Source: Escherichia coli (GTDB taxonomy: Bacteria; Pseudomonadota; Gammaproteobacteria; Enterobacterales; Enterobacteriaceae). From it: a stretch of 64,000 nucleotides of DNA. Each line of letters starts with the position of its first letter. Position 1 is the stretch's first letter. The DNA is taken from assembly GCF_003334765.1 (NCBI RefSeq), contig NZ_QOWT01000022.1; one strand, 5' to 3'. The translations under genes were made by a program, and so were the position numbers. Shown here one piece after another: positions 61,493 through 61,519 of this stretch. The notes under the pieces were generated by a model. That model ran no database searches, was not told where the DNA came from, and saw only the letters and a list, made by a program, of their open reading frames with translations.

Positions 61493-61519
61493 GATAATGC
61501 TTATCAAAATTATTATCAC
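61493..61519. promoter_or_regulatory. Fur box upstream of fiu
   Basis: GATAATGcttATCaaaATTATTATCAC. Confidence 0.5.

Follow-up and report, generated by a model that had tools for sequence, protein, structure and literature searches.

The fiu locus

At the end of the 64-kb stretch of E. coli DNA analysed here (the window), the genes run ybiO, rlmF, mcbA, fiu, the order that RefSeq annotates in matching E. coli chromosomes. The last of these, identified from the RefSeq annotation of matching loci, is the gene around which our analysis is built:

61622-63904, plus strand: fiu, a 760-aa open reading frame encoding a TonB-dependent catecholate siderophore receptor

The predicted protein agrees with K-12 Fiu at 759 of 760 residues. 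The one substitution, Y521N (window position 63182, codon 521, TAT to AAT), results from the sole base difference from K-12 MG1655 across 60653-63925. All 264 bases of the mcbA-fiu intergenic region are the same as in MG1655, so that data gathered in K-12 can be applied directly to this DNA, and the region is found in 5422 of 5426 complete E. coli genomes. Relative to a further strain, 300709, the window shows four base differences between 15160 and 62144, and the Fiu protein of that strain also differs from the one encoded here; the 2216 apparent mismatches to strain 300709 are confined to the part of the window ahead of position 15160, in which the two genomes diverge, and were set aside.

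Both sides of fiu carry features of their own. Downstream, the window ends within an IS421/IS186-type element (63926-64000) that begins 21 bp past the fiu stop codon, in the fiu-ybiX spacer, which is 41 bp long in K-12. The target duplication, GGCGCAGGCC, occupies 63916-63925, and the site of insertion has the form GGGG-N6-CCCC. The transposase of the element is opposite in orientation to fiu in strain 300709. Only 29 of the 5426 complete E. coli genomes share this fiu-IS421 junction, and in strains that bear the element ybiX and ybiI are physically separated from the Fur-controlled fiu promoter. Upstream, a 10-bp hairpin (AACUGCAUUC/GGAUGCAGUU) followed by UUUCG occupies window 61370-61399, starting 13 nt past the mcbA stop codon. 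Its folding energy of -15.4 kcal/mol stands well below that of shuffled sequences (z = -4.0), and it is nearly invariant in Escherichia, with one substitution, in strain SFAD3. A consensus terminator scan did not report the hairpin at 61370-61399; it is probably the intrinsic mcbA terminator, insulating the fiu promoter from the gene upstream.

A tandem Fur motif upstream of fiu

A prior reading of the DNA from its letters (hereafter, the sequence-only reading) had proposed a Fur box in the fiu promoter. We re-read the 27 bases concerned, GATAATGCTTATCAAAATTATTATCAC, and found the same letters at 61493-61519, equivalent to 841634-841660 on the minus strand of NC_000913.3. By the open reading frame map, a single long frame lies downstream of the box and opens at the fiu ATG, 61622, so that the box begins 129 bp and ends 103 bp upstream of it, in keeping with the roughly 100 bp that had been suggested. 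To describe the motif, we searched the 64-kb window for the 15-bp 7-1-7 inverted repeat TGATAATNATTATCA (also written TGATAATnATTATCA), allowing up to two mismatches, and in addition for the classical 19-mer consensus GATAATGATAATCATTATC; the consensus derived from Fur ChIP-exo is TGAnAATnATTcTCA (PMC10164565). At fiu, these scans identified:

61492-61506, unstranded: Fur 7-1-7 repeat no. 1, TGATAATgCTTATCA, one mismatch, the strongest site
61504-61518, unstranded: Fur 7-1-7 repeat no. 2, TCAAAATtATTATCA, two mismatches, offset by 12 bp from no. 1
61487-61523, unstranded: full Fur operator cluster, four overlapping 19-bp registers in 6-bp steps, 37 bp in all

The good consensus match claimed by the sequence-only reading is thus borne out by two 7-1-7 repeats, with one and two mismatches, the first of them centred on 61499, or -123 relative to the fiu ATG. 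Two aspects of that reading call for adjustment. The interval 61493-61519 is in the right place, but the true core spans 61492-61518 and the cluster 61487-61523, slightly more than had been marked. Likewise, the match to consensus holds under the 7-1-7 model, but the classical 19-mer fits less well: at up to three mismatches, the 19-mer has no match anywhere in the window, and the registers at fiu, starting at 61487, 61493, 61499, and 61505, each match at 13 to 15 of 19 positions on both strands.

Even so, the site stands out from the rest of the window. The 7-1-7 motif at up to two mismatches occurs five times in the window, compared with an expectation of 0.25, and the three occurrences other than the fiu pair all lie within coding sequences (opgE, ybiV, and pdeI). 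The fiu site supplies eight of the 15 best 19-mer matches in the window, and it ranks first among the Fur-like sites of the window under four scoring schemes, tied with one coding-region site under the plain 19-mer scheme. When two 7-1-7 units spaced 12 bp apart are scored jointly, the fiu pair reaches 25 of 28 and the runner-up in the window 20; the tandem score never exceeded 21 across 200 simulated 64-kb sequences matched in composition to the whole window, and it peaked at 22 across 200 more that were matched to the AT-rich mcbA-fiu spacer. Neither the 7-1-7 nor the 19-mer scan revealed a second Fur-like site in the mcbA-fiu intergenic region.

Over both scans, the Fur-like matches away from fiu lie at 29850-29868 (pdeI), 31044-31068 (gsiD), 43866-43884 (ybiV), and 51872-51886 (opgE), all in coding sequence. 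These score 14 to 15 of 19, or carry two mismatches to the 7-1-7 motif, and are likely to be chance matches or weak sites within genes.

Conservation of the operator across Enterobacterales

A genome scan based on Fiu yielded orthologous loci in many Enterobacterales, 24 of which we checked for the motif. Two 7-1-7 units spaced 12 bp apart are present upstream of fiu in 21 of the 24, at a distance from the fiu ATG of 109-132 bp (116-132 bp if Pseudocitrobacter is excepted), and the genera carrying the tandem repeat are Escherichia, Citrobacter, Klebsiella, Raoultella, Leclercia, Enterobacter, Silvania, and Pseudocitrobacter. At the remaining loci the arrangement is reduced: Citrobacter braakii keeps one 7-1-7 unit; among the three Pantoea loci, Pantoea wallisii has one weak unit and the other two show no 7-1-7 match at up to three mismatches, as is also the case in Enterobacter ludwigii. 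In a 17-taxon alignment, E. ludwigii and Pantoea carry a version that is 6 bp shorter and weaker.

The same alignment resolves the box as an island of invariant columns, TGATAA..TT..C....TTAT.A, with diverging flanks; the ATTATCA arm of repeat no. 2 is nearly invariant across the 17 taxa. The polymorphisms common in Escherichia lie just outside the box, at 61486 and 61522, and these two positions explain a seeming excess of variants in a 41-bp query spanning the box. Changes inside the box mostly affect the central, unspecified base of a repeat or bring a position closer to the consensus; an exception is Escherichia sp. MOD1, which is divergent and also has two changes away from the consensus.

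Published Fur occupancy and Fur-dependent expression at fiu

The site is already known: it is the Fur operator catalogued for fiu, and its DNA agrees with K-12 base for base, so that published data can be mapped directly onto the window. Chen et al. 2007 (NAR 35:6762; PMC2189734, Table 4) list a fiu Fur cluster of 17.2 bits with four overlapping sites spanning 37 bp, and our own scan (61487-61523) returns the same number of sites and the same extent. The strongest site in their table, at coordinate 840877 and -123 from the start codon (PMC2189734), falls on window position 61499, at the midpoint of 7-1-7 repeat no. 1. The fiu entry in that table is listed without footprint or gel shift (PMC2189734). 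Four overlapping Fur sites are also given for the fiu promoter in PMC5126674, which cites Newman and Shapiro 1999.

In vivo occupancy comes from the ChIP-exo experiments of Gao et al. 2023 (NAR 51:3618; PMC10164565, supplement), in which the Fur peak in the fiu-ybiX entry, named P24, is located at 840869-840893 in MG1655 and at 842081-842093 in W3110. The W3110 coordinates translate directly into window positions 61482-61494. The MG1655 coordinates follow the old NC_000913.2 numbering, to which we applied a shift of +777, placing the peak at window 61483-61507. We accept this shift because the MG1655 peak is labelled intergenic, which would be impossible without it; the shift also reconciles the -123 position of Chen et al. 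and brings the upstream edge of the MG1655 peak to within 1 bp of the W3110 edge. The centres of the ChIP-exo peaks fall approximately 5-15 bp upstream of the box centre.

Expression data point in the same direction. The sequence-only reading had proposed expression in a fur mutant as a check, and published measurements provide it: fiu belongs to the core Fur regulon of nine strains, with a log2 fold change of 5.2-10.0 in fur deletion mutants (PMC10164565), equivalent to derepression of about 36- to 1000-fold, and in K-12 ybiX and ybiI follow the response of fiu (PMC10164565). Fusions of the fiu promoter to lacZ are repressed by Fur (PMC4676285), and strain H1780, carrying fiu::lacZ, is a standard Fur reporter (PMC3050691). 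An absence of iron or Fur regulation, the outcome that had been named as speaking against a Fur box, is thus contradicted by ChIP-exo, by expression in fur deletion mutants, and by lacZ reporters alike.

A second Fur ChIP-exo peak, P25 (ybiT-ybiU intergenic region, old coordinates 857017-857029), falls at window positions of approximately 45347-45359 by simple offset, on the presumption that the window is colinear with K-12, and lies near the point where the 3' ends of ybiT and ybiU converge. The 7-1-7 and 19-mer scans found no strong Fur motif near these positions.

Candidate promoters and the fiu leader

Scanning the region with the promoter consensus returned two candidates, both overlapping the Fur box:

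61471-61498, plus strand: promoter candidate A, -35 GTGATA (61471-61476), 16-bp spacer, -10 GATAAT (61493-61498), consensus scan 9/12
61491-61519, plus strand: promoter candidate B, -35 GTGATA (61491-61496), 17-bp spacer, -10 TATCAC (61514-61519), consensus scan 8/12

The -10 hexamer of candidate A coincides with the first Fur half-site and predicts a transcription start near 61505. Among the 14 Fur-box taxa that were scanned, the window included, candidate A is found at the homologous position in 12, scoring 9/12 in 11 taxa and 8/12 in C. youngae; the exceptions are Escherichia MOD1, where the -10 is without its final T, and Pseudocitrobacter. The invariant T, G, and A columns of its -35 are those positions that match the consensus. 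Candidate B lies in its entirety within the Fur operator and predicts a start near 61526. Its -35 reads TTGATA in nine of the 13 other taxa scanned and GTGATA or ATGATA elsewhere, and its -10 reads TATCAC/A; the window sequence scores 8/12, against 9/12 for most other genera. We consider candidate B the weaker because its -10 is without the final T in most taxa, and we favour candidate A because the invariant columns of its -35 match the consensus and its -10 has the critical final T. On the basis of these sequence features, the favoured fiu promoter is candidate A, with a putative start near 61505 and a leader of approximately 116 nt. A literature search for the fiu transcription start found no start coordinate.

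An RNA element in the leader was also considered and is ruled out: RNAalifold predicts no pairs across 14 taxa, so that no conserved leader structure emerges, and the single-sequence fold of the fiu 5' leader is no better than that of shuffled sequences (z = -0.43). An Rfam scan of 61300-61700 at E<=1 identified no RNA family. Close to the gene, all 17 taxa keep an A-rich block, AAAAnTATAAGTC (61596-61612), at 10-25 nt before the fiu ATG. The E. coli fiu leader shows no obvious Shine-Dalgarno sequence of the canonical kind, and the A-rich block may be an unusual ribosome-binding or enhancer region.

A second conserved block upstream of the Fur operator

Upstream of the Fur box, the alignment shows one more island of conservation, ATGTAAATAAATGTATTTcttttt, at window 61437-61460. 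Within it, the block ATGTAAATAAATGTATTT (61437-61454), about 40 bp upstream of the Fur operator, holds the pattern GTAAA-N5-GTATT, of which GTAAA (61439-61443) and GT.TT are invariant in the 17 Enterobacterales taxa. The GTAAA (61439-61443) and GTATT (61449-61453) elements form direct repeats 10 bp apart, a spacing like that of CpxR or OmpR sites. The closest pattern considered is the CpxR-type GTAAA-N5-GTAAA; a literature search linking CpxR to fiu returned nothing specific.

ArcA is a further candidate for binding here. Park et al. 2013 report an ArcA ChIP peak at fiu with its centre at 840921-840928 in old coordinates, which maps to window 61448-61455, at the GTAAA-N5-GTATT block. The authors' matrix gives the ArcA box at this peak as 'NA' (Park et al. 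2013). In ArcA boxes, the centres of two TGTTA direct repeats stand 11 bp apart (Park et al. 2013), and the sequence at 61439-61453 resembles such boxes in being a direct repeat; it differs in that its repeats are GTAAA and GTATT at 10 bp rather than TGTTA at 11 bp, and so it does not qualify as an ArcA box. We tentatively suggest that 61439-61453 could be a non-canonical operator with 10-bp direct repeats for ArcA or another regulator of the OmpR/PhoB family, in which case the Fur operator would be one half of the control region; this is a possibility that we hold with less than even confidence. If it is correct, the upstream block would add an oxygen or envelope signal to the iron control of catecholate uptake, and would amount to one more site on a known promoter and not to a new kind of system.

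Alternative explanations for the conserved box

We assign a probability of about 95% to the reading in which the 27-base sequence is the Fur operator of the E. coli fiu promoter, occluded by Fe2+-Fur, and weighed three other accounts of the same observations against it. The likeliest of these is that the AT-rich block is kept solely as the sigma-70 core promoter of fiu, with Fur control exerted elsewhere or indirectly. Two promoter-like hexamer pairs that recur from genus to genus do fall on the box, and AT-rich promoter DNA looks like the AT-rich Fur consensus. Conservation, however, tracks the dyad symmetry of the 7-1-7 repeats, including arms that lie outside both hexamer pairs, and variation gathers at the unspecified central repeat bases; moreover, the Fur ChIP-exo peaks of two strains fall on the box, and the 7-1-7 and 19-mer scans found no other Fur-like site in the intergenic region. 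The roles of promoter and operator are in any case compatible, since their overlap is expected for a Fur-repressed gene, and we regard conservation of a promoter and nothing more as very unlikely.

Still less probable, in our estimation, is that the box serves another regulator as its operator, for instance ArcA, CRP, or a Fur-family protein like Zur. Such a role might be entertained given that ArcA is bound at the fiu promoter region in ChIP and that CRP is among the annotated regulators of fiu. Yet the ArcA peak is centred at 61448-61455, some 40-50 bp upstream of the box, with no ArcA box called; the box itself is an inverted repeat of GATAAT-type arms, not a set of ArcA direct repeats; inspection by eye finds no good CRP motif (TGTGA-N6-TCACA) in it; and the response of fiu to deletion of fur is massive. 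Finally, AT-rich intergenic DNA matches the Fur consensus more easily than other DNA, and isolated matches of 14-15/19 also occur in the coding regions of the window, so that a chance resemblance might be suspected. The tandem score at fiu was unapproached in 400 simulations, 200 of them with the local AT-rich composition, the element is kept at a fixed distance from fiu in at least eight genera, and the published in vivo Fur occupancy falls on the box, which together leave chance with a negligible share of the probability: as an explanation it is, for practical purposes, refuted.

Proposed regulation of fiu and comparison with known systems

The Fur operator reading suggests the following course of regulation. 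When iron is sufficient, Fe2+-loaded Fur dimers would occupy the cluster of overlapping sites of about 37 bp at 61487-61523, whose core is formed by the 7-1-7 inverted repeats at 61492-61506 and 61504-61518. Bound in this way, Fur would sit over the -10 of the fiu sigma-70 promoter, and perhaps over its -35 as well, shutting out RNA polymerase and keeping fiu silent; in K-12, the downstream genes ybiX and ybiI would be silenced together with it. When iron is scarce, Fur would lose its metal and leave the DNA, and transcription of fiu would rise by about 36- to 1000-fold. Binding by Fur and Fur control of fiu are established in published work. As candidates A and B both overlap the box, promoter occlusion, the standard mode of Fur repression, is the likely mechanism whichever of them is used; we infer this step from the predicted hexamers and transcription start.

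The operator accounts for fiu being on solely under iron limitation. The catecholate receptor Fiu also lets in siderophore-conjugated antibiotics, cefiderocol among them. Beyond correct annotation, the fiu Fur site matters little in itself; a real regulatory site was recognised from sequence alone, and the footprint across genera charts cleanly which positions of the fiu control region are conserved.

In comparison with K-12, the fiu Fur operator in the window is the same DNA at the same coordinate, with the same four overlapping sites over 37 bp. What distinguishes the window strain lies outside the operator, in the IS421 insertion downstream and the Y521N substitution in Fiu. More broadly, the fiu operator belongs with those of aerobactin (iucA), fepA-fes, cirA, and fhuF, all of which are built of overlapping Fur sites in a 6-bp register. 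As described in general terms in PMC2189734, operators of the iucA, fepA-fes, cirA, and fhuF type lie over sigma-70 elements and keep iron-uptake genes repressed. The form that this architecture takes at fiu is a pair of best 7-1-7 units spaced 12 bp apart with weaker registers between them, rather than a single near-perfect 19-mer.
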